In this document: piece after piece, positions 12,784 to 43,821 of the stretch
How the letters are laid out: each line of letters starts with the position of its first letter
Numbering within the stretch: the stretch's first letter is position 1
The notes under the pieces: generated by a model
Database searches by the model: none
What the model was told of the DNA's origin: nothing
What the model saw: the letters and a program-made list of their open reading frames with translations, nothing else
Source of the DNA: Escherichia coli
Lineage (GTDB): Bacteria; Pseudomonadota; Gammaproteobacteria; Enterobacterales; Enterobacteriaceae
Assembly (NCBI RefSeq): GCF_003334355.1
Contig: NZ_QOWP01000014.1
DNA: 64,000 nt
Strand: one strand, 5' to 3'
Translations under genes and position numbers: made by a program

Positions 12784-15172
<2,389 letters not shown>

Positions 15173-18852: not shown

Positions 18853-19935
18853 TTAACGTACCTTCAGCGTTGCCAGACCAATCAGAACCAGCATCAGCGA
18901 AATAATCCAGAAACGCACAATGACGCGCGGTTCCGGCCAGCCTTTCAGTTCATAGTGGTGATGAATCGGTGCCATGCGGAAAATACGTTGTCCGCGCAGT
19001 TTAAAGGAGCCGACCTGCAGGATGACAGAAAGTGTTTCTACCACGAACACGCCCCCCATAATCACCAGCAGGAATTCCTGACGTAGCAGTACGGCGATAA
19101 TGCCTAACGCACCACCTAACGCCAGCGAACCTACATCGCCCATAAAGACCTGCGCCGGATAGGTGTTAAACCACAGGAAGCCCAGTCCTGCCCCGACTAT
19201 CGCGGTACAGACAATAACCAGTTCCCCGGCGTGTCGCAGATACGGTATATGCAAGTAGCTGGCAAAGTTCATATTGCCGGTCGCCCACGCCACCAGCGCA
19301 AAACCACCGGCGACAAATACGGTCGGCATAATTGCCAGGCCGTCGAGACCATCGGTCAGGTTTACCGCGTTGCCAGTACCCACAATGACGAAGTAAGCCA
19401 GCAGAATGTAGAACAGCCCCAGCTGCGGCATCACATCTTTAAAGAATGGGACCACCAGCTGCGTTGCGGGCGTGTCTTTGCCGGCAAGGTACAGGGCGAA
19501 GGCGACACCCAGCGCAATGACCGACATCCAGAAATACTTCCAACGAGCGATCAACCCTTTGGTGTCTTTACGCACCACTTTGCGATAATCATCAACAAAG
19601 CCAATAACACCGTAACCTACCAGCACCACCAACACGCACCAGACGTACGGATTGGACGGGTAAGCCCACAGCAGTACGGAGATCACAATCGCCGTCAGGA
19701 TCATAATCCCGCCCATGGTCGGCGTACCGCGCTTGCTGAAGTGTGATTCAGGACCGTCGTTACGCACCACCTGACCAAAGGAAAGTTTTTGCAAATGAGC
19801 AATCATACGCGGGCCCATCCACAATGAGATGAACAGCGCGGTCAGCAGGCTGACGATGGCGCGAAACGTCAGATAGGAAAAGACGTTAAAGCCGGAATAA
19901 TATTTGACCAAATGTTCGGCCAGCCAAACTAACAT
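18853..19935 (-). CDS. mraY: Phospho-N-acetylmuramoyl-pentapeptide transferase
   Basis: 360-aa ORF; polytopic membrane protein. Confidence 0.97.
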
Positions 19936-21287: not shown

Positions 21288-22771
21288 GCAATCACCCCCA
21301 GCAGACGCGCCACCGTGACGCGATCGGAGTAGTCCAGACGCTGATTGCCAACAATCTGGTAATCTTCATGGCCTTTGCCCGCGACCAGTACCACATCATT
21401 CTCTTTAGCCTGCATAACGGCGCAAGTCACCGCTTCAGCACGGCCTTCCATCACTTTGGCATGTCCGGCATCTAACATTCCCGCCAGAATATCGTTGATG
21501 ATGGCACGCGGTTCTTCGGTACGCGGGTTATCGTCCGTCACCACCGCCACGTCAGCAAACTCTTCGGCAATTGCGCCCATCAGTGGACGCTTACCTTTAT
21601 CGCGATCGCCACCACAGCCAAAGACACACCACAGCTTGCCCGCACAGTGCAGACGCGCCGCCTGTAAGGCTTTTTCCAGTGCATCCGGCGTATGCGCGTA
21701 ATCCACCACCACCGTCGGTTTGCCTGGCGCAGTGAACACTTCCATACGTCCGCAAACCGGTTGCAGACGCGCGGCGGTTTTCAGCAGATCAGCCAGTGGA
21801 TAGCCGAGTGCCAACAGTGTCGCCAGCGCGAGCAGCAGGTTGCTGACGTTAAAAGCGCCCATCAGATGGCTTTCAATTTCGCCATCGCCCCAACTTGAGC
21901 TAAAGCGAATCGTCGCACCGCTGTCGTGATAGTTCACTTCGGTCGCTTTCAACCAGCGTCCGTGACAGTTCGGATTAATATGATCTTCCATTGATACCGC
22001 AACCGCGTCCGGCAGTTTTGCCAGCCAGCGGCGGCCCACTTCATCGTCGGCGTTAATAATCGCCTGACCGCAATGATGCTCAGAATAAAGCAGCCATTTC
22101 GCGGCTTCGTAGTGTTCCATATCACCATGATAATCAAGGTGATCGCGGCTTAAGTTGGTAAAGACCGACGCCGCAAATTTCAATGCCGCCACACGGTGCT
22201 GTACCAGCCCGTGGGAGGAAACTTCCATTGCGCAAAACGTCGCGCCCTGATCCACCAGCCCCGCCAGCTCATGCTGAACATCGACTGCCGAACCGGTTGT
22301 ATTTTCTGTCGGGATCACTTTCCCCAGCAGGCCGTTACCAACGGTGCCCATTACCGCGCTGGTTTCGCCAAGCAGTTGGCTCCACTGCGCCAACAGCTGG
22401 GTAGTCGTGGTTTTGCCGTTGGTGCCCGTTACGCCCACGAGACGTAAATTGTCAGAGGGTTCATGGTAAAAGCGGCCCGCCAGTGCAGATAAACGCTCGT
22501 TGAGCTGGCTGAGATAGATGACCGGTACGCCGTGCATTTCACGGATTTCACCATCGGTCGCCTCATCTTTCGCCTCTGCAATAATGGCAGCCACACCTTG
22601 CGCTATCGCCTGCGGGATATATCGACGCCCGTCCGCCTGATGACCTACTACAGCTACAAAGAGATCGCCCGCCGCAGCCACACGGCTGTCGAGTGTCATC
22701 TCTCGCAGTGCTCGCGAAGGTGCGTCTGGCACCCACGGAGCAAGAAGGTCGCGCAAATTACGATCTGCCAC
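21284..22771 (-). CDS. murE: UDP-MurNAc-L-Ala-D-Glu--meso-diaminopimelate ligase
   Basis: 495-aa ORF; Mur ligase motif GTNGKTTT. Confidence 0.97.
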
Positions 22772-38570: not shown

Positions 38571-38637
38571 GTTAGGAATTATTGACTTAATATAGGGAAA
38601 ATAAAATTGCTGTCTTTTGCGCAGGAGTTCCCCTTTT

Positions 38638-40293
38638 ATGCCATCTGCTCGTCTGCAACAACAGTTCATCCGCCTGTGGCAATGCTGCGAGGGTAAATCG
38701 CAGGACACAACGCTCAACGAACTGGCAGCGTTATTGAGCTGCTCGCGTCGTCATATGCGTACCCTGCTCAACACCATGCAGGATCGCGGCTGGCTGACGT
38801 GGGAAGCGGAAGTCGGGCGCGGTAAACGCTCGCGTCTGACATTCCTCTATACCGGGCTGGCGCTTCAGCAACAGCGGGCGGAAGACCTGCTGGAGCAGGA
38901 TCGTATCGACCAACTAGTACAGTTGGTTGGCGACAAAGCGACTGTGCGGCAAATGCTGGTTTCTCATCTGGGCCGCAGCTTCCGCCAGGGGCGGCACATC
39001 CTGCGCGTGCTCTACTATCGTCCGTTGCGTAATCTGCTACCTGGCAGCGCATTGCGCCGTTCCGAAACCCATATTGCCCGGCAAATCTTCAGTTCGCTAA
39101 CGCGCATAAATGAGGAAAATGGGGAACTGGAAGCAGACATCGCCCACCACTGGCAGCAAATATCACCGCTTCACTGGCGTTTCTTTTTGCGTCCAGGAGT
39201 CCATTTTCATCATGGTCGTGAACTGGAAATGGACGACGTGATCGCCTCTTTAAAACGAATCAATACGCTGCCGCTCTATTCGCATATTGCTGACATTGTG
39301 TCGCCGACGCCCTGGACGCTGGATATCCATCTCACGCAACCGGACCGCTGGTTACCGTTATTGCTGGGGCAAGTTCCGGCGATGATCCTGCCGCGCGAAT
39401 GGGAAACCCTCAGTAACTTTGCCAGCCATCCCATCGGCACCGGTCCGTATGCGGTGATCCGCAACAGCACCAATCAACTGAAAATTCAGGCATTCGATGA
39501 CTTCTTCGGTTACCGGGCATTAATCGACGAAGTTAACGTCTGGGTTCTGCCGGAAATTGCCGACGAGCCAGCCGGAGGTCTGATGCTAAAAGGTCCACAG
39601 GGCGAGGAAAAAGAGATTGAAAGCCGCCTGGAGGAAGGTTGCTACTATTTACTATTCGACAGCCGCACCCATCGCGGGGCGAATCAGCAAGTCAGGGACT
39701 GGGTAAGCTATGTGCTTTCTCCAACTAATCTGGTCTATTTCGCTGAGGAACAGTACCAGCAACTGTGGTTCCCGGCTTATGGACTGCTCCCCCGTTGGCA
39801 CCATGCCCGCACCATAAAGAGCGAAAAACCGGCTGGTCTGGAAAGCCTCACCCTAACCTTTTATCAGGATCACAGTGAGCATCGGGTGATTGCCGGGATC
39901 ATGCAGCAGATTCTGGCAAGTCACCAGGTCACGCTGGAAATCAAAGAGATCGACTACGATCAGTGGCATACAGGAGAGATCGAAAGTGATATCTGGCTAA
40001 ACAGCGCCAACTTTACCCTGCCGCTGGACTTCTCTGTTTTCGCACATTTATGCGAAGTGCCACTGCTACAACATTGCATTCCCATTGACTGGCAAGCCGA
40101 CGCTGCTCGCTGGCGCAATGGCGAGATGAATCTGGCGAACTGGTGCCAGCAACTGGTCGCCAGCAAAGCGATGGTGCCATTATTGCACCACTGGCTGATC
40201 ATTCAGGGGCAACGCAGTATGCGCGGCCTGCGCATGAACACCCTCGGCTGGTTCGATTTTAAATCAGCGTGGTTTGCGCCACCGGATCCATGA
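38638..40293 (+). CDS. sgrR: Transcriptional regulator SgrR (HTH + solute-binding-protein-like domain)
   Basis: 551 aa from internal ATG ([15 protein letters not shown]...); track ORF has 7 extra N-terminal codons. Confidence 0.94.
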
Positions 40294-40321: not shown

Positions 40322-40420
40322 TAACGCCGTTCTCAACGGGGTGCCACGCAAACGCGTGCGCTGAGAAAATACCCGTCGAACCTGATCCGGATAACGCCGG
40401 CGAAGGGATTTGAGGCTCCT
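40322..40420 (+). promoter_or_regulatory. sroA: TPP riboswitch (THI element; sroA) in thiBPQ leader
   Basis: Conserved THI-box core ggggtgcc...gctgagaaaatacccgtcgaacctgatccggataacgccggcgaagggatttg about 40 nt upstream of thiB start. Confidence 0.88.
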
Positions 40421-40456
40421 TCTCAAGTCCTTTGCCACTCTTTTTTGAGGTGCAAA

Positions 40457-41440
40457 GTGTTAAAAAAATGTCTGCCCCTGCTGTTGCTGTGCACAGCGCC
40501 CGTTTTCGCTAAACCCGTTCTGACTGTTTATACCTACGATTCCTTCGCCGCCGACTGGGGGCCTGGTCCGGTGGTTAAAAAAGCCTTTGAAGCCGACTGT
40601 AATTGCGAACTGAAACTGGTGGCGCTGGAAGATGGCGTTTCGCTTCTCAACCGTCTACGGATGGAAGGCAAAAACAGCAAAGCCGATGTAGTTCTGGGGC
40701 TGGATAACAACCTGTTAGACGCCGCCAGTAAAACCGGACTGTTTGCCAAAAGCGGCGTGGCAGCGGATGCCATTAACGTTCCCGGCGGCTGGAATAATGA
40801 CACTTTCGTACCGTTTGATTACGGCTACTTCGCCTTCGTCTACGACAAGAACAAACTGAAAAACCCGCCCCAAAGCCTGAAAGAGCTGGTTGAGAGCGAT
40901 CAAAACTGGCGAGTGATTTATCAGGATCCGCGCACCAGTACGCCGGGGCTGGGTCTGCTGTTGTGGATGCAAAAAGTCTATGGCGATGACACCCCGCAGG
41001 CCTGGCAGAAACTGGCGAAGAAAACTGTCACCGTCACCAAAGGCTGGAGCGAAGCCTACGGCCTGTTTTTAAAAGGTGAAAGCGATCTGGTACTGAGTTA
41101 CACCACCTCTCCGGCTTATCACATTCTCGAAGAGAAAAAAGATAACTACGCCGCCGCGAACTTTAGCGAAGGTCACTATCTGCAGGTGGAAGTCGCCGCC
41201 CGCACCGCTGCCAGCAAGCAGCCGGAGCTGGCGCAAAAATTTCTCCAGTTTATGGTTTCTCCGGCTTTCCAGAATGCGATCCCAACCGGCAACTGGATGT
41301 ATCCGGTGGCAAATGTCACGCTGCCTGCCGGGTTTGAACAATTGACCAAACCAGCAACCACGCTGGAGTTCACGCCAGCCGAAGTGGCGGCACAACGTCA
41401 GGCATGGATTAGCGAATGGCAACGCGCCGTCAGCCGTTAA
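40457..41440 (+). CDS. thiB: Thiamine ABC transporter periplasmic binding protein
   Basis: 327 aa from GTG (MLKKCLPLLLLCTAPVFA signal peptide); track ORF starts 4 codons earlier at TTG; exact start uncertain. Confidence 0.92.
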   Translation: MLKKCLPLLLLCTAPVFAKPVLTVYTYDSFAADWGPGPVVKKAFEADCNCELKLVALEDGVSLLNRLRMEGKNSKADVVLGLDNNLLDAASKTGLFAKSGVAADAINVPGGWNNDTFVPFDYGYFAFVYDKNKLKNPPQSLKELVESDQNWRVIYQDPRTSTPGLGLLLWMQKVYGDDTPQAWQKLAKKTVTVTKGWSEAYGLFLKGESDLVLSYTTSPAYHILEEKKDNYAAANFSEGHYLQVEVAARTAASKQPELAQKFLQFMVSPAFQNAIPTGNWMYPVANVTLPAGFEQLTKPATTLEFTPAEVAAQRQAWISEWQRAVSR

Positions 41441-43026
41441 TTCCCGGCTGGTTAATTCCAGGTGTAAGCGCCGCCACGCTGGTGGTAGCGGTTGCGCTCG
41501 CGGCGTTTCTCGCCCTGTGGTGGAACGCGCCGCAGGGTAACTGGGTGGCAATCTGGCAGGACAGCTACCTGTGGCATGTGGTGCGCTTCTCCTTCTGGCA
41601 GGCGTTTCTCTCGGCGCTGCTCTCTGTCGTACCCGCGATATTCCTCGCCCGCGCACTCTATCGCAGGCGCTTTCCGGGTCGGCTGGCGCTGTTGCGTCTG
41701 TGCGCAATGACCTTGATCCTCCCGGTGCTGGTTGCTGTTTTCGGCATTCTTAGCGTCTATGGTCGTCAGGGCTGGCTGGCATCGCTCTGCCAATCGCTCG
41801 GTCTGGAGTGGACCTTTTCGCCCTACGGCCTGCAAGGTATTTTGCTGGCGCACGTATTTTTTAATCTACCGATGGCGAGCCGCTTATTACTCCAGGCACT
41901 GGAAAACATTCCCGGCGAGCAACGTCAGCTTGCCGCCCAGCTTGGGATGCGCGGCTGGCATTTTTTCCGCTTCATCGAATGGCCGTGGCTACGGCGACAA
42001 ATCCCGCCGGTTGCCGCGCTTATCTTTATGCTCTGTTTCGCCAGCTTCGCCACCGTGCTGTCGCTGGGCGGCGGTCCGCAGGCAACCACTATCGAGCTGG
42101 CAATCTATCAGGCGCTGAGTTACGACTACGATCCTGCCCGCGCGGCGATGCTGGCGCTGATCCAGATGGTGTGTTGCCTCGGGTTGGTGCTGCTGAGTCA
42201 GCGATTGAGTAAGGCCATTGCGCCAGGCACCACGCTGCTGCAAGGCTGGCGCGACCCGGACGATCGTCTGCATAGCCGCATTTGCGACACGGTGTTAATT
42301 GTGCTGGCGCTGCTGCTGTTGCTGCCACCGTTGCTGGCGGTGATCGTCGATGGGCTAAATCGCCAGTTGCCGGAAGTGCTGGCACAACCGGTGCTGTGGC
42401 AGGCGCTGTGGACCTCGTTGCGTATTGCGCTGGCGGCAGGTGTATTGTGCGTAGTGCTGACCATGATGCTGCTATGGAGCAGTCGCGAACTTCGGGCGCG
42501 GCAGAAAATGCTGGCGGGTCAGGCGCTGGAGATGAGCGGCATGTTGATTCTCGCCATGCCGGGGATTGTGCTGGCTACCGGCTTCTTTTTACTGCTCAAC
42601 AACACCATTGGCCTGCCGCAATCTGCTGACGGCATTGTGATTTTCACCAATGCGTTAATGGCGATCCCTTATGCGCTGAAAGTACTGGAAAACCCGATGC
42701 GCGATATCACCGCCCGCTACAGTATGTTGTGTCAGTCGCTGGGCATTGAAGGCTGGTCGCGCTTAAAAGTGGTCGAGCTGCGCGCCCTGAAACGTCCACT
42801 GGCGCAGGCGCTGGCTTTTGCCTGCGTGCTGTCGATTGGTGATTTTGGCGTAGTGGCGTTGTTCGGTAACGATGATTTCCGTACCCTGCCGTTTTATCTC
42901 TACCAGCAAATTGGCTCCTATCGCAGCCAGGACGGTGCGGTCACCGCGTTAATTCTGCTACTACTCTGTTTTCTGCTGTTTACCGTGATTGAAAAACTAC
43001 CGGGGCGAAATGTTAAAACTGACTGA
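41416..43026 (+). CDS. thiP: Thiamine ABC transporter permease
   Basis: 536-aa ORF; duplicated ABC permease domains; 25-nt overlap with thiB. Confidence 0.95.
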
Positions 43027-43708
43027 TATCACCTGGCTTTATCACCATTTGCCGATGCGTTTTAGCTTAACGGTAGAACGCGGCGAGCAGGTGGCAATCC
43101 TCGGGCCAAGCGGCGCGGGTAAAAGTACCCTGCTGAATTTGATCGCCGGTTTTCTGACGCCAGCCAGCGGTTCGCTGACTATCGACGGCGTTGATCACAC
43201 CACGACGCCGCCGTCACGCCGTCCGGTGTCGATGCTGTTTCAGGAAAACAACCTGTTCAGTCACCTGACGGTCGCGCAGAACATCGGGCTGGGGCTAAAT
43301 CCGGGATTGAAACTGAACGCGGCACAGCAGGAGAAAATGCACGCTATCGCCCGCCAGATGGGGATTGATAATTTAATGGCGCGGTTACCTGGCGAGCTTT
43401 CCGGCGGTCAGCGACAGCGAGTGGCGTTAGCACGTTGTCTGGTACGCGAACAGCCGATTTTATTGCTCGATGAACCGTTCTCTGCGCTCGATCCGGCACT
43501 ACGCCAGGAGATGTTGACGCTGGTGAGCACGAGCTGCCAGCAGCAAAAAATGACGTTATTGATGGTGTCACACAGTGTGGAAGATGCCGCGCGGATCGCC
43601 ACGCGCTCGGTGGTGGTCGCCGACGGGCGCATCGCCTGGCAGGGTAAGACCAATGAGTTGTTGAGCGGTAAGGCGAGTGCTTCAGCACTATTGGGGATTA
43701 CGGGTTAG
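43010..43708 (+). CDS. thiQ: Thiamine ABC transporter ATP-binding protein
   Basis: 232 aa from internal ATG ([13 protein letters not shown]...); Walker [13 protein letters not shown] signature LSGGQRQR, Walker B LLLDEP. Confidence 0.95.
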
Positions 43709-43714
43709 TATGCA

Positions 43715-43802
<88 letters not shown>

Positions 43803-43821
43803 ACCCGCACAAGACAATCCC

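Follow-up and report, generated by a model that had tools for sequence, protein, structure and literature searches.

Long out-of-frame overlaps in the thiBPQ operon of Escherichia coli and their bearing on translational coupling

Described overlaps and the thiBPQ junctions

Short overlaps within operons, of the ATGA (−4) or TAATG/TGATG (−1) type, with coupling by termination and re-initiation, are represented in E. coli by hyfHI, astDB and menDH, among others. The thiBPQ junctions resemble these pairs in that the genes lie out of frame on the same strand of one operon, with the second start codon placed inside the last part of the first gene, a Shine-Dalgarno (SD) element in the upstream coding sequence and products that belong to one complex. 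They differ in length, since the hyfHI, astDB and menDH type overlaps by 1–8 nt whereas the thiBPQ overlaps of 25 and 17 nt fall in the range of strongly reduced re-initiation. Coupling peaks at distances of −4 to +3 nt and is eroded faster by overlap than by spacing (review PMC12548453), and in reporters re-initiation drops with growing overlap, 11.6-fold at 25 nt, with overlaps of at least 25 nt being advised by the authors for avoiding coupling (Tian & Salis 2015, PMC4538824). Distances of −8 to +10 nt have been treated as predictive of re-initiation (Huber et al. 2023), and the thiBPQ distances of −25 and −17 lie outside this efficient range.

Three other systems bear comparison. The 32-nt overlap of lptC and lptA in the same genome is likewise long, joins adjacent genes of one transport machine and is conserved across taxa (for the LptC > LptA pair the median distance is −14 and q1 is −23; Huber et al. 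2023 Table S4), though other proteins are encoded there. The orthologous operon of Erwiniaceae (Pantoea, Tatumella, Rosenbergiella) agrees in its ThiB tail and in where thiB stops, but its thiB/thiP junction differs by offering a start with a 1-nt overlap (TAATG or TGATG); three of these loci have lost the start at −25, which reads CTG, and four carry both. In the RNA phage MS2 the coat and lysis genes (−50 nt) also place the downstream start far ahead of the upstream stop, with access depending on the behavior of terminating ribosomes (PMC12548453). MS2 differs in being a phage system with experimental evidence, the lysis start being silent without coat translation.

The window analysed here is a stretch of 64,000 nt that is 100% identical to E. 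coli ATCC 8739 (NZ_CP022959.1), whose PGAP/RefSeq annotation supplies the gene coordinates (Table 1). A B-P-Q gene order on a single strand and a TPP riboswitch ahead of thiB, which scores 66.1 bits where the gathering threshold is 54.3, are those of a ThiBPQ importer operon, and the RefSeq and NCBIfam annotation predicts a thiamine/TPP ABC importer as its product. Each protein matches its equivalog profile well above the cutoff: ThiB with 644.7 bits (TIGR01276, cutoff 317), ThiP with 1195 bits (NF006953, cutoff 970, residues 1–536 of a 536-position profile) and ThiQ with 451 bits (NF008039, cutoff 298, residues 1–231).

Table 1. Positions of the thiBPQ genes and of the elements at their junctions (numbering of the window)
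Feature	Position	Strand	Remarks
TPP riboswitch (THI element), thiB leader	40327–40426	+	Rfam RF00059; also a RefSeq riboswitch
thiB, periplasmic thiamine-binding protein	40457–41440	+	PGAP; GTG start, 327 aa, TAA stop at 41438–41440
GGA, sole SD-like element before the thiP start	41406–41408	+	Inside the conserved thiB Trp-Ile codons
Predicted hairpin around SD and ATG of thiP	41406–41443	+	RNAfold, E. coli; thiB stop in the 3' arm
thiB/thiP overlap	41416–41440	+	ThiB E-W-Q-R-A-V-S-R-stop; ThiP M-A-T-R-R-Q-P-L-(I)
thiP, fused double-domain ABC permease	41416–43026	+	PGAP; 536 aa, TGA stop at 43024–43026
GGGG, SD-like element of thiQ	43002–43005	+	Within ThiP Pro-Gly-Arg codons; 4-nt spacer to ATG
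thiP/thiQ overlap	43010–43026	+	ThiP tail (R)-N-V-K-T-D-stop; ThiQ M-L-K-L-T-D
thiQ, ABC ATPase	43010–43708	+	PGAP; 232 aa

The first-pass annotation of this DNA had given the overlaps as 25 and 17 nt, and both lengths hold: from the thiP ATG (41416–41418) to the end of the thiB stop codon there are 25 nt, and from the thiQ ATG (43010–43012) to that of the thiP stop codon 17 nt, counted inclusively. At each junction the neighbours share a strand, are read in different frames and have the downstream start before the upstream stop, which is the geometry of a genuine overlap; the frame offsets differ (25 mod 3 = 1 for thiB/thiP, 17 mod 3 = 2 for thiP/thiQ). The same distances, −17 and −25, are already tabulated for K-12 (Huber et al. 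2023 Table S2).

The overlaps had also been called unusually long, and long they are, the two longest among the 15 annotated same-strand overlaps in the window. The accompanying view that 1–4 nt is typical elsewhere is roughly right, with four pairs overlapping by 1 nt and five by 4 nt, but passes over single overlaps of 7, 8, 11 and 14 nt. A tally by eye of 214 kb of this genome's annotation, which is a sample, gave 40 same-strand overlaps, of which 22 are of 4 nt, ten of 1 nt and two of 11 nt, with the remainder occurring once each, at 7, 8, 14, 17, 25 and, for lptC/lptA, 32 nt. For ThiP-type permease > ThiQ, published distances have their median at −14 and their quartiles at −17 and −8 (n = 184; Huber et al. 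2023 Table S4), joint eighth most negative in the sorted list of 2,972 COG pairs (Huber et al. 2023), and for the TbpA > permease pair the published q1 is −25 (n = 318). The 25- and 17-nt overlaps look genuine and correctly annotated, and they are evolutionarily old and out of frame. They were already known and are an ordinary, well-explained feature, neither a discovery nor an annotation error.

Start codons of thiP and thiQ

The thiP ATG consists of the final base of a thiB GAA codon and the TG of the Trp codon at 41417–41419, which is invariant. From comparison, the thiP start appears to be built on this Trp codon, eight codons ahead of the thiB stop, so that any locus using this start has an overlap of 25 nt, no more and no less. 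Of 70 Enterobacterales loci in which both genes could be placed, 69 have exactly this length, and it is found again in four distant homologs (35–46% identity, genomes of 26–57% GC). Of 5,426 complete E. coli genomes, 5,275 match the 50 nt around the overlap without a single difference. The compared sequences are kin, and independent events are fewer than these locus counts would indicate.

The overlap carries the mark of constraint in two frames. Third-position entropy for thiB falls from 1.58 bits upstream to 0.76 in the overlap, and for thiP it is 0.47 in the overlap as opposed to 1.44 downstream, so it is lowered in both frames. The N-terminal MAxRxQ motif of ThiP recurs in distant homologs. 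We discounted the conservation of ThiP residues 1–8 as proof of translation because the same bases encode the ThiB tail, whose pattern W-Q-x-A-(V/L)-(S/T) is kept in Vibrionaceae too, where the overlap is absent, and relied instead on the start codon and on four-fold-degenerate sites.

Among 70 aligned sequences, the codon at the annotated thiP start is ATG in 59, GTG in seven, TTG in one and CTG in three, hence ATG, GTG or TTG in 67. The base that opens this codon is the third base of the thiB codon before Trp, an otherwise free position, and eight different thiB codons that end in A occur there. Where that codon is four-fold degenerate, its third base is A in 35 cases, G in five, C in three and T in none, as compared with a background of 19% for A; A or G thus makes up 40 of 43 against a background of 42%. 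Taken together, the comparison makes a strong case for ATG 41416 as the real thiP start.

An alternative start farther downstream, which the first-pass annotation had offered as the alternative to coupling, would make the overlaps artefacts of annotation that are absent at the protein level. We regard this as very unlikely, and the evidence on thiP is instructive in both directions. In its favor, INRI-seq (in-vitro initiation profiling) gives zero signal at the thiP ATG; the template there was scarce (20 CPM), and the assay missed about 30% of all annotated starts, thiB among them. In-vivo Ribo-RET (retapamulin ribosome profiling), within the comparison given in the INRI-seq tables, holds nothing for the thiBPQ operon, and we suspect that the operon was simply unexpressed under the conditions used. 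None of thiB, thiP and thiQ appears in the TRAINSPOTTER N-terminomics supplement or in that on Salmonella riboproteogenomics, and the literature searched yielded no experiment that maps the thiP start directly.

Some Erwiniaceae, moreover, clearly start at codon 9 of thiP (41440–41442, + strand). That codon is ATC in 28 of 70 sequences, ATT in 27, ATG in seven, ATA in four and something else in four; all seven ATG codons belong to Erwiniaceae, where they form TAATG or TGATG with the thiB stop and so overlap it by 1 nt, and the three loci whose −25 codon is CTG all carry one. To judge by these loci, ThiP may be able to do without its eight N-terminal residues, and the operon therefore without the 25-nt overlap. 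In E. coli, by contrast, codon 9 is ATT rather than ATG, and the next canonical in-frame start after the annotated one is GTG 41482, which would truncate the first hydrophobic, predicted transmembrane segment of ThiP. Neither ATT 41440 nor GTG 41482 is preceded by an SD element, the annotated start codons are kept across loci in the face of synonymous drift, and the equivalog profiles match from residue 1. A downstream thiP start in E. coli is accordingly unsupported.

The thiQ start is more directly documented. The homologous codon is ATG in 78 of 79 loci, the CCGGGN motif at its SD is conserved across Enterobacteriaceae, and the annotated K-12 start gives an in-vitro initiation peak in 5/5 INRI-seq replicates; ATG 43010 is really used as a start, as both experiment and conservation attest. 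A weak INRI-seq signal at a CTG at +9 (6.4 CPM, 2 replicates) would speak for an artefact in thiQ, but a start there would still leave an overlap of 8 nt. The next canonical in-frame start, ATG 43055, has no SD and would truncate the N-terminal part of ThiQ, ahead of the residues that align with solved ABC ATPase domains (in the PDB, from residue 17 on), and so a downstream thiQ start fares no better than one in thiP. The description of ATG 43010 as internal is correct only mechanically, since the ORF opens at TTG 42989; we rejected that TTG as the start because it has no SD (duplex ΔG of +0.6 kcal/mol) and no INRI-seq peak listed.

In contrast to the fixed 25 nt of the first junction, the thiP/thiQ overlap varies: across 79 loci it is 17 nt in 52, 14 in eleven, 8 in six, 4 in five and 29 in two, with single junctions of 7 nt, 23 nt and a 12-nt gap. 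Comparison points to a thiQ ATG that stays fixed while the poorly conserved ThiP tail continues in the thiP frame until a stop is reached, and the overlap length would drift by lineage (4, 8, 14 or 17 nt). We also considered programmed frameshifting to ThiP-ThiQ or ThiB-ThiP fusions and rejected it, as inspection of the overlaps revealed no slippery motif and the fusions in databases stem from deletions of 1 nt or more.

Initiation at the overlaps and the question of coupling

The three starts of the operon differ in the strength of their SD duplexes with the 3' end of 16S rRNA. The GAGG before thiB GTG 40457 reaches −6.9 kcal/mol and the GGGG of thiQ −5.0 kcal/mol, while the GGA of thiP gives −3.5 kcal/mol in E. 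coli and −3.4 on average over 69 orthologous loci, its G being invariant at alignment columns 36–37. Accessibility shows the same order for thiP and thiQ: the median opening energy is 10.5 kcal/mol at thiP, 7.2 at thiQ and 11.1 at random internal sites, and in 52 of 69 loci the value for thiP lies above that for thiQ. The region around the thiP start is therefore weak, with an accessibility no better than that of random coding sequence.

Folding of the 75 nt around the thiP start with RNAfold gives −28 kcal/mol (z = −1.74) and the predicted hairpin of Table 1, a candidate for coupling through RNA unfolding, which would require a conserved structure with compensatory changes. In a gap-free alignment of 70 sequences, pairing is retained in 81.6% of cells compared with 80.9% in shuffles, 26 cells changed on both sides compared with 28.4 expected, so there is no excess covariation, and the RNAalifold consensus (−3 kcal/mol) lacks the stem. 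We therefore do not build on the hairpin.

The first-pass annotation took the length of the overlaps to imply tight translational coupling, that is, a hand-over of ribosomes from thiB to thiP to thiQ by termination and re-initiation that would fix the subunit ratio. Several features would fit: the subunits form one complex, as the products of overlapping pairs do more often than expected; the thiP start has a weak SD and gave no sign in vitro of initiating by itself; and the operon contains no promoter-like site. Indeed, internal promoters that might uncouple the cistrons were rejected, with no sigma-70-like match within the operon and fewer terminator-like matches than shuffles would predict. 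Tight coupling does not, however, follow from long overlaps because re-initiation falls with overlap length in reporters; an 11.6-fold loss at 25 nt and a best range of −4 to +3 nt run counter to it, as does the advice to use overlaps of this length where coupling is unwanted. The thiQ peak, furthermore, was obtained on an isolated fragment beginning 30 nt upstream of its ATG, which means that independent initiation is possible when upstream translation is absent. An importer of this kind is expected to have its binding protein in excess, with one ThiP and two ThiQ, which speaks against a 1:1 hand-over between thiB and thiP. We consider tight coupling unlikely.

At the other extreme, the overlaps may be neutral leftovers without effect on expression, thiP and thiQ being translated only by free 30S subunits. 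The drift of the thiP/thiQ overlap around a constant thiQ start seems compatible with this, as do simulations in which stop and start codon replacement reproduces the observed length distributions (PMC3887535) and the failure of the hairpin to show covariation. This reading has difficulty with thiP, whose initiation region is weak and structured like random coding sequence and whose start would fall in the expected footprint range of terminating thiB ribosomes, so that some interaction, positive or negative, seems unavoidable. The persistence of exactly 25 nt in very divergent lineages also counts against it, but conservation of the Trp codon could be enough to explain that persistence. We find neutrality at both junctions distinctly improbable.

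Between these extremes lies the reading that we prefer, in which old overlaps are combined with a thiQ translated from its own SD and a weak, thiB-limited initiation of thiP; as a whole, we consider this combination likely. Initiation of thiQ would occur de novo at the GGGG element within thiP. Judging from footprint size, the thiP start would sit just behind the ribosome terminating on thiB, and this position, together with the weak SD and poor accessibility, would make thiP translation inefficient. ThiP may then be made when gaps open between thiB ribosomes, or by a minority of ribosomes that backtrack 22 nt after termination, and some dependence of thiP on thiB translation is plausible. Weak thiP and independent thiQ initiation would fit the expected subunit ratio. 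The long overlaps would on this basis be a frozen historical arrangement that loosens rather than tightens re-initiation coupling.

Meaning of the overlaps for the operon

A stronger proposal is that the exact 25-nt overlap is a conserved device for setting an expression ratio, with the thiP start held some 22 nt behind the thiB stop on a Trp codon that cannot change, so that thiB traffic throttles thiP and keeps the permease low relative to the binding protein. We hold this to be rather doubtful. If it were true, Pantoea and Tatumella, in which the start has moved to TAATG, would have re-tuned the ratio.

For annotation, the thiP and thiQ starts in RefSeq and K-12 look sound, and the long overlaps should not be "corrected" by shifting starts downstream; beyond correct annotation, the matter is of little consequence. 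The thiBPQ operon does illustrate neatly that long overlaps can originate in two different ways, and if the setting of a ratio by thiB traffic were true, it would be a natural case of the engineering rule that overlaps of at least 25 nt decouple re-initiation.

Overlap lengths and operon layout

All three proteins score above the cutoffs of the NCBIfam equivalog models for ThiB, ThiP and ThiQ, with the alignment beginning at residue 1 for ThiP and ThiQ. Over 3.7 kb the region shows 100% identity to E. coli ATCC 8739 (NZ_CP022959.1), and every one of the 5,426 complete E. coli genomes that were searched contains homologous sequence. The two long overlaps described in the first-pass annotation are exact in coordinates and length, both by sequence and by RefSeq/PGAP: thiB and thiP share 25 nt, the thiP ATG (41416-41418) lying ahead of the thiB TAA (41438-41440), and thiP and thiQ share 17 nt, the thiQ ATG (43010-43012) lying ahead of the thiP TGA (43024-43026).

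Features of the thiBPQ region and the remaining same-strand overlaps longer than 4 nt (window coordinates)
Feature	Position	Strand	Length	Source
TPP riboswitch	40327-40426	+		Rfam RF00059
thiB	40457-41440	+		RefSeq/PGAP
thiP	41416-43026	+		RefSeq/PGAP
thiQ	43010-43708	+		RefSeq/PGAP
gspE/hofC overlap	213-223	same strand	11 nt	annotation
ddlB/murC overlap	13697-13704	same strand	8 nt	annotation
mraY/murF overlap	19929-19935	same strand	7 nt	annotation
murE/ftsI overlap	22758-22771	same strand	14 nt	annotation

Among the 15 same-strand overlaps annotated across the whole window, four are of 1 nt, five are of 4 nt and the thi pairs are the two longest. The claim that they are unusually long thus stands, while its companion, that overlaps elsewhere measure 1-4 nt, is only approximate, with 7, 8, 11 and 14 nt also present. 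In a wider sample that adds three 50-kb stretches of the same genome (214 kb in total, counted by eye), the 40 overlaps comprise 22 of 4 nt, ten of 1 nt, two of 11 nt and single cases of 7, 8, 14, 17, 25 and 32 nt. The longest of these belongs to lptC/lptA (locus L088:45722-45753; NZ_CP022959.1 545722-545753), a pair whose cross-species median distance is, like that of the ThiP-type permease and ThiQ, among the most negative (median −14, lower quartile −23; Huber et al. 2023). The K-12 distances of −17 (thiP to thiQ) and −25 (thiB to thiP) are tabulated in the same survey (Huber et al. 2023, Table S2, PMC10666635). In its cross-species table the ThiP-type permease to ThiQ pair (n = 184) shares eighth place among the most negative medians, at the head of the sorted list, with a median of −14 and quartiles of −17 and −8; the survey counts 2,972 COG (orthologous gene family) pairs. 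For TbpA to permease (n = 318) the median is −1 and the lower quartile falls at exactly −25. Having been annotated and tabulated before, the overlaps were already known; they are a real feature, and their lengths fall in the upper tail of the distribution.

No sigma-70-like promoter match was found inside the operon, whose reported control is by the TPP riboswitch and is Rho-dependent (PMC12360218). The sgrR gene lies 5' of thiBPQ at 38617-40293, and the database transcription unit sgrR-sroA-thiBPQ is a computational inference only; the rise of sgrR by 6.5-fold under nitrogen depletion, with thiQ not up, argues against co-transcription (gSELEX/RT-qPCR study, PMC8743547). At the 3' end, the thiQ-yabI spacer (43715-43805) holds palindromic REP-like repeats, e.g., GCCTGATAAGACGCG...CGCATCAGGC, and the 3.7-kb query has a median of 4 match sites per E. 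coli genome, with a separate 34-nt match at 43769-43802, which would fit a dispersed repeat.

The thiP start

INRI-seq (Hör et al. 2022, PMC9825163), which applies retapamulin profiling in vitro to synthetic fragments that open 30 nt ahead of each start, gives zero signal at the thiP start, whose template is scarce in the pool, and misses thiB and about 30% of annotated starts as well; in vivo retapamulin profiling (Ribo-RET) gives no signal across the operon (comparison in PMC9825163). For thiB, the mechanical opening of the frame is TTG 40445, and the annotated GTG 40457, the start undetected by INRI-seq, is preceded by GAGG (duplex ΔG of −6.9 kcal/mol vs. −0.1 kcal/mol for the TTG).

The comparative case for the annotated thiP start is strong. 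Of the 70 Enterobacterales loci in which both genes can be placed, 69 have an overlap of exactly 25 nt, and in a gap-free alignment (n = 70) the codon at the start position is ATG in 59, GTG in 7, TTG in 1 and CTG in 3. The thiB gene ends ...GAA TGG CAA CGC GCC GTC AGC CGT TAA, and the thiP ATG takes its A from the final position of a thiB codon and its TG from an invariant Trp codon, an arrangement that supplies a mechanistic reason, new here, for an overlap fixed at exactly 25 nt. Where the codon ahead of Trp is four-fold degenerate (n = 43), A occupies the third position in 35 sequences, G in 5, C in 3 and T in none, compared with a background of 19% A at four-fold sites in the 14 thiB codons further upstream, and eight different codons there all end in A. 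Third-position entropy is lowered within the overlap in both frames (thiB, 0.76 bits vs. 1.58 upstream; thiP, 0.47 vs. 1.44 downstream), and 5,275 of 5,426 E. coli genomes agree exactly over 50 nt across the junction. Also new is the conservation of the 25-nt overlap in four distant homologs of 35-46% identity (gene calls); the ATG lies on the Trp codon in the three whose DNA could be retrieved, from genomes or contigs of widely differing GC (26%, 35% and 57%).

We set aside the conservation of ThiP residues 1-8 as proof of translation. The ThiB tail motif W-Q-x-A-L-T is also present in Vibrionaceae, where the two genes do not overlap, so the Trp is conserved for ThiB itself and the ThiB tail explains the same bases.

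The first canonical in-frame thiP start past the thiB stop is GTG 41482 (codon 23), which has no Shine-Dalgarno (SD) sequence and would sit within the first hydrophobic, predicted transmembrane segment of ThiP. Directly 5' of the thiP ATG and in its frame is a two-codon mini-ORF (ATG GAT TAG, 41404-41412) that arises from the ThiB Ala-Trp-Ile-Ser codons; its TAG is missing in some genera, where gene callers lengthen thiP 5' (e.g., protein P0058, MDSLVATRRQ...). The thiP 5' end also carries a direct 9-nt repeat, GTTAATTCC, at 41436-41444 and 41451-41459, coding for a repeated LIPG-W-LIPG, and GGATTAGCG at 41406-41414 is a potential pairing partner of either copy.

Some Erwiniaceae differ from E. 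coli at the thiB/thiP junction. All three loci with CTG at the −25 start (Pantoea, Tatumella) have ATG at thiP codon 9, forming a canonical TAATG or TGATG with a 1-nt overlap with the thiB stop, whereas codon 9 in E. coli is ATT; four further Erwiniaceae loci have both candidate starts. The codon-9 ATG is seen in Pantoea, Tatumella and Rosenbergiella (loci L046, L055 and L072, also L052, L057, L070 and L071, about 2501-2530 in each). The thiP start has thus apparently moved between the −25 and the 1-nt-overlap positions within one bacterial family, a shift that is new here.

The thiP/thiQ junction

The annotated K-12 thiQ start gives an INRI-seq peak in 5 of 5 replicates (13.5-23 CPM; Hör et al. 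2022, PMC9825163), and the only other start in the list (PMC9825163), a weak CTG at +9, would if used leave an 8-nt overlap. Among 79 loci from other genomes with a mappable start, 78 have ATG in the homologous position and the remaining one GTG, and the overlap is 17 nt in 52, 14 in 11, 8 in 6, 4 in 5, 29 in 2, and 7, 23 and a 12-nt gap in one each, a spread that agrees with the published quartiles (Huber et al. 2023). The variable element is the end point of the ThiP tail, which past the conserved IEKLPGR motif reads, e.g., NVKTD, HAKTD, HADTE or HDRSR, and is simply the N-terminal codons of thiQ read in the other frame up to the first stop. This origin of the overlap, a fixed start and a drifting tail, is new here.

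The thiQ SD is a GGGG run (43002-43005) with a moderate duplex of −5.0 kcal/mol, and duplex calculation finds none at the upstream TTG 42989 or the downstream ATG 43055. Solved ABC ATPase domains align from ThiQ residue 17, and a start at 43055 would lose an N-terminal stretch ahead of the aligned region. With both starts conserved, a thiQ peak in INRI-seq, and GTG 41482 and ATG 43055 both lacking an SD, the alternative downstream start that had been proposed for thiP or thiQ is unsupported in E. coli.

Natural ThiP-ThiQ fusions of 763 aa are present in E. coli assemblies. In one class the GGGG run, the thiQ SD inside thiP, has lost 1 nt, which puts thiQ in frame with thiP; NCBI assembly GCA_047156945.1 has this deletion, and SRA run SRR13494210 shows it independently (loci L083:3066-3140 and L084). 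The junction of a second class, read from protein sequence alone and mostly from single sequences, fits an A5 run (42992-42996) shortened by one A, and sequencing error in the homopolymer could account for it.

Coupling and subunit ratio

The overlap lengths had also been taken to imply tight translational coupling, which they do not, and the literature on long overlaps points away from it. Coupling is optimal from −4 to +3 nt and declines more steeply as the overlap grows than as the spacing does (review PMC12548453), re-initiation shows a measured 11.6-fold drop at a 25-nt overlap and overlaps of at least 25 nt are advised for avoiding coupling (Tian and Salis 2015, PMC4538824), and only −8 to +10 nt is taken as predictive of re-initiation (Huber et al. 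2023, PMC10666635). The thiQ gene demonstrably initiates in vitro without upstream translation.

For thiP, the SD is weak (−3.5 kcal/mol; mean of −3.4 over 69 loci) and the median opening energy of the initiation region is 10.5 kcal/mol, on a par with random internal coding sites (11.1) and above thiQ (7.2), exceeding that of thiQ in 52 of 69 loci. A predicted hairpin encloses the thiP SD and ATG and holds the thiB stop in its 3' arm, which would be in line with coupling by RNA unfolding; covariation gave no support for this hairpin, and we do not rely on it as an explanation.

Judging by the size of a ribosome footprint, a ribosome terminating at 41438-41440 would cover approximately 41420-41452 and collide with an initiation complex on 41416, so that heavy thiB traffic should limit, rather than promote, thiP initiation, with the exception of the few post-termination ribosomes that might move back. 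A binding-protein-dependent ABC importer is expected to have ThiB in excess with one ThiP and two ThiQ, and limited thiP initiation would fit this subunit ratio.
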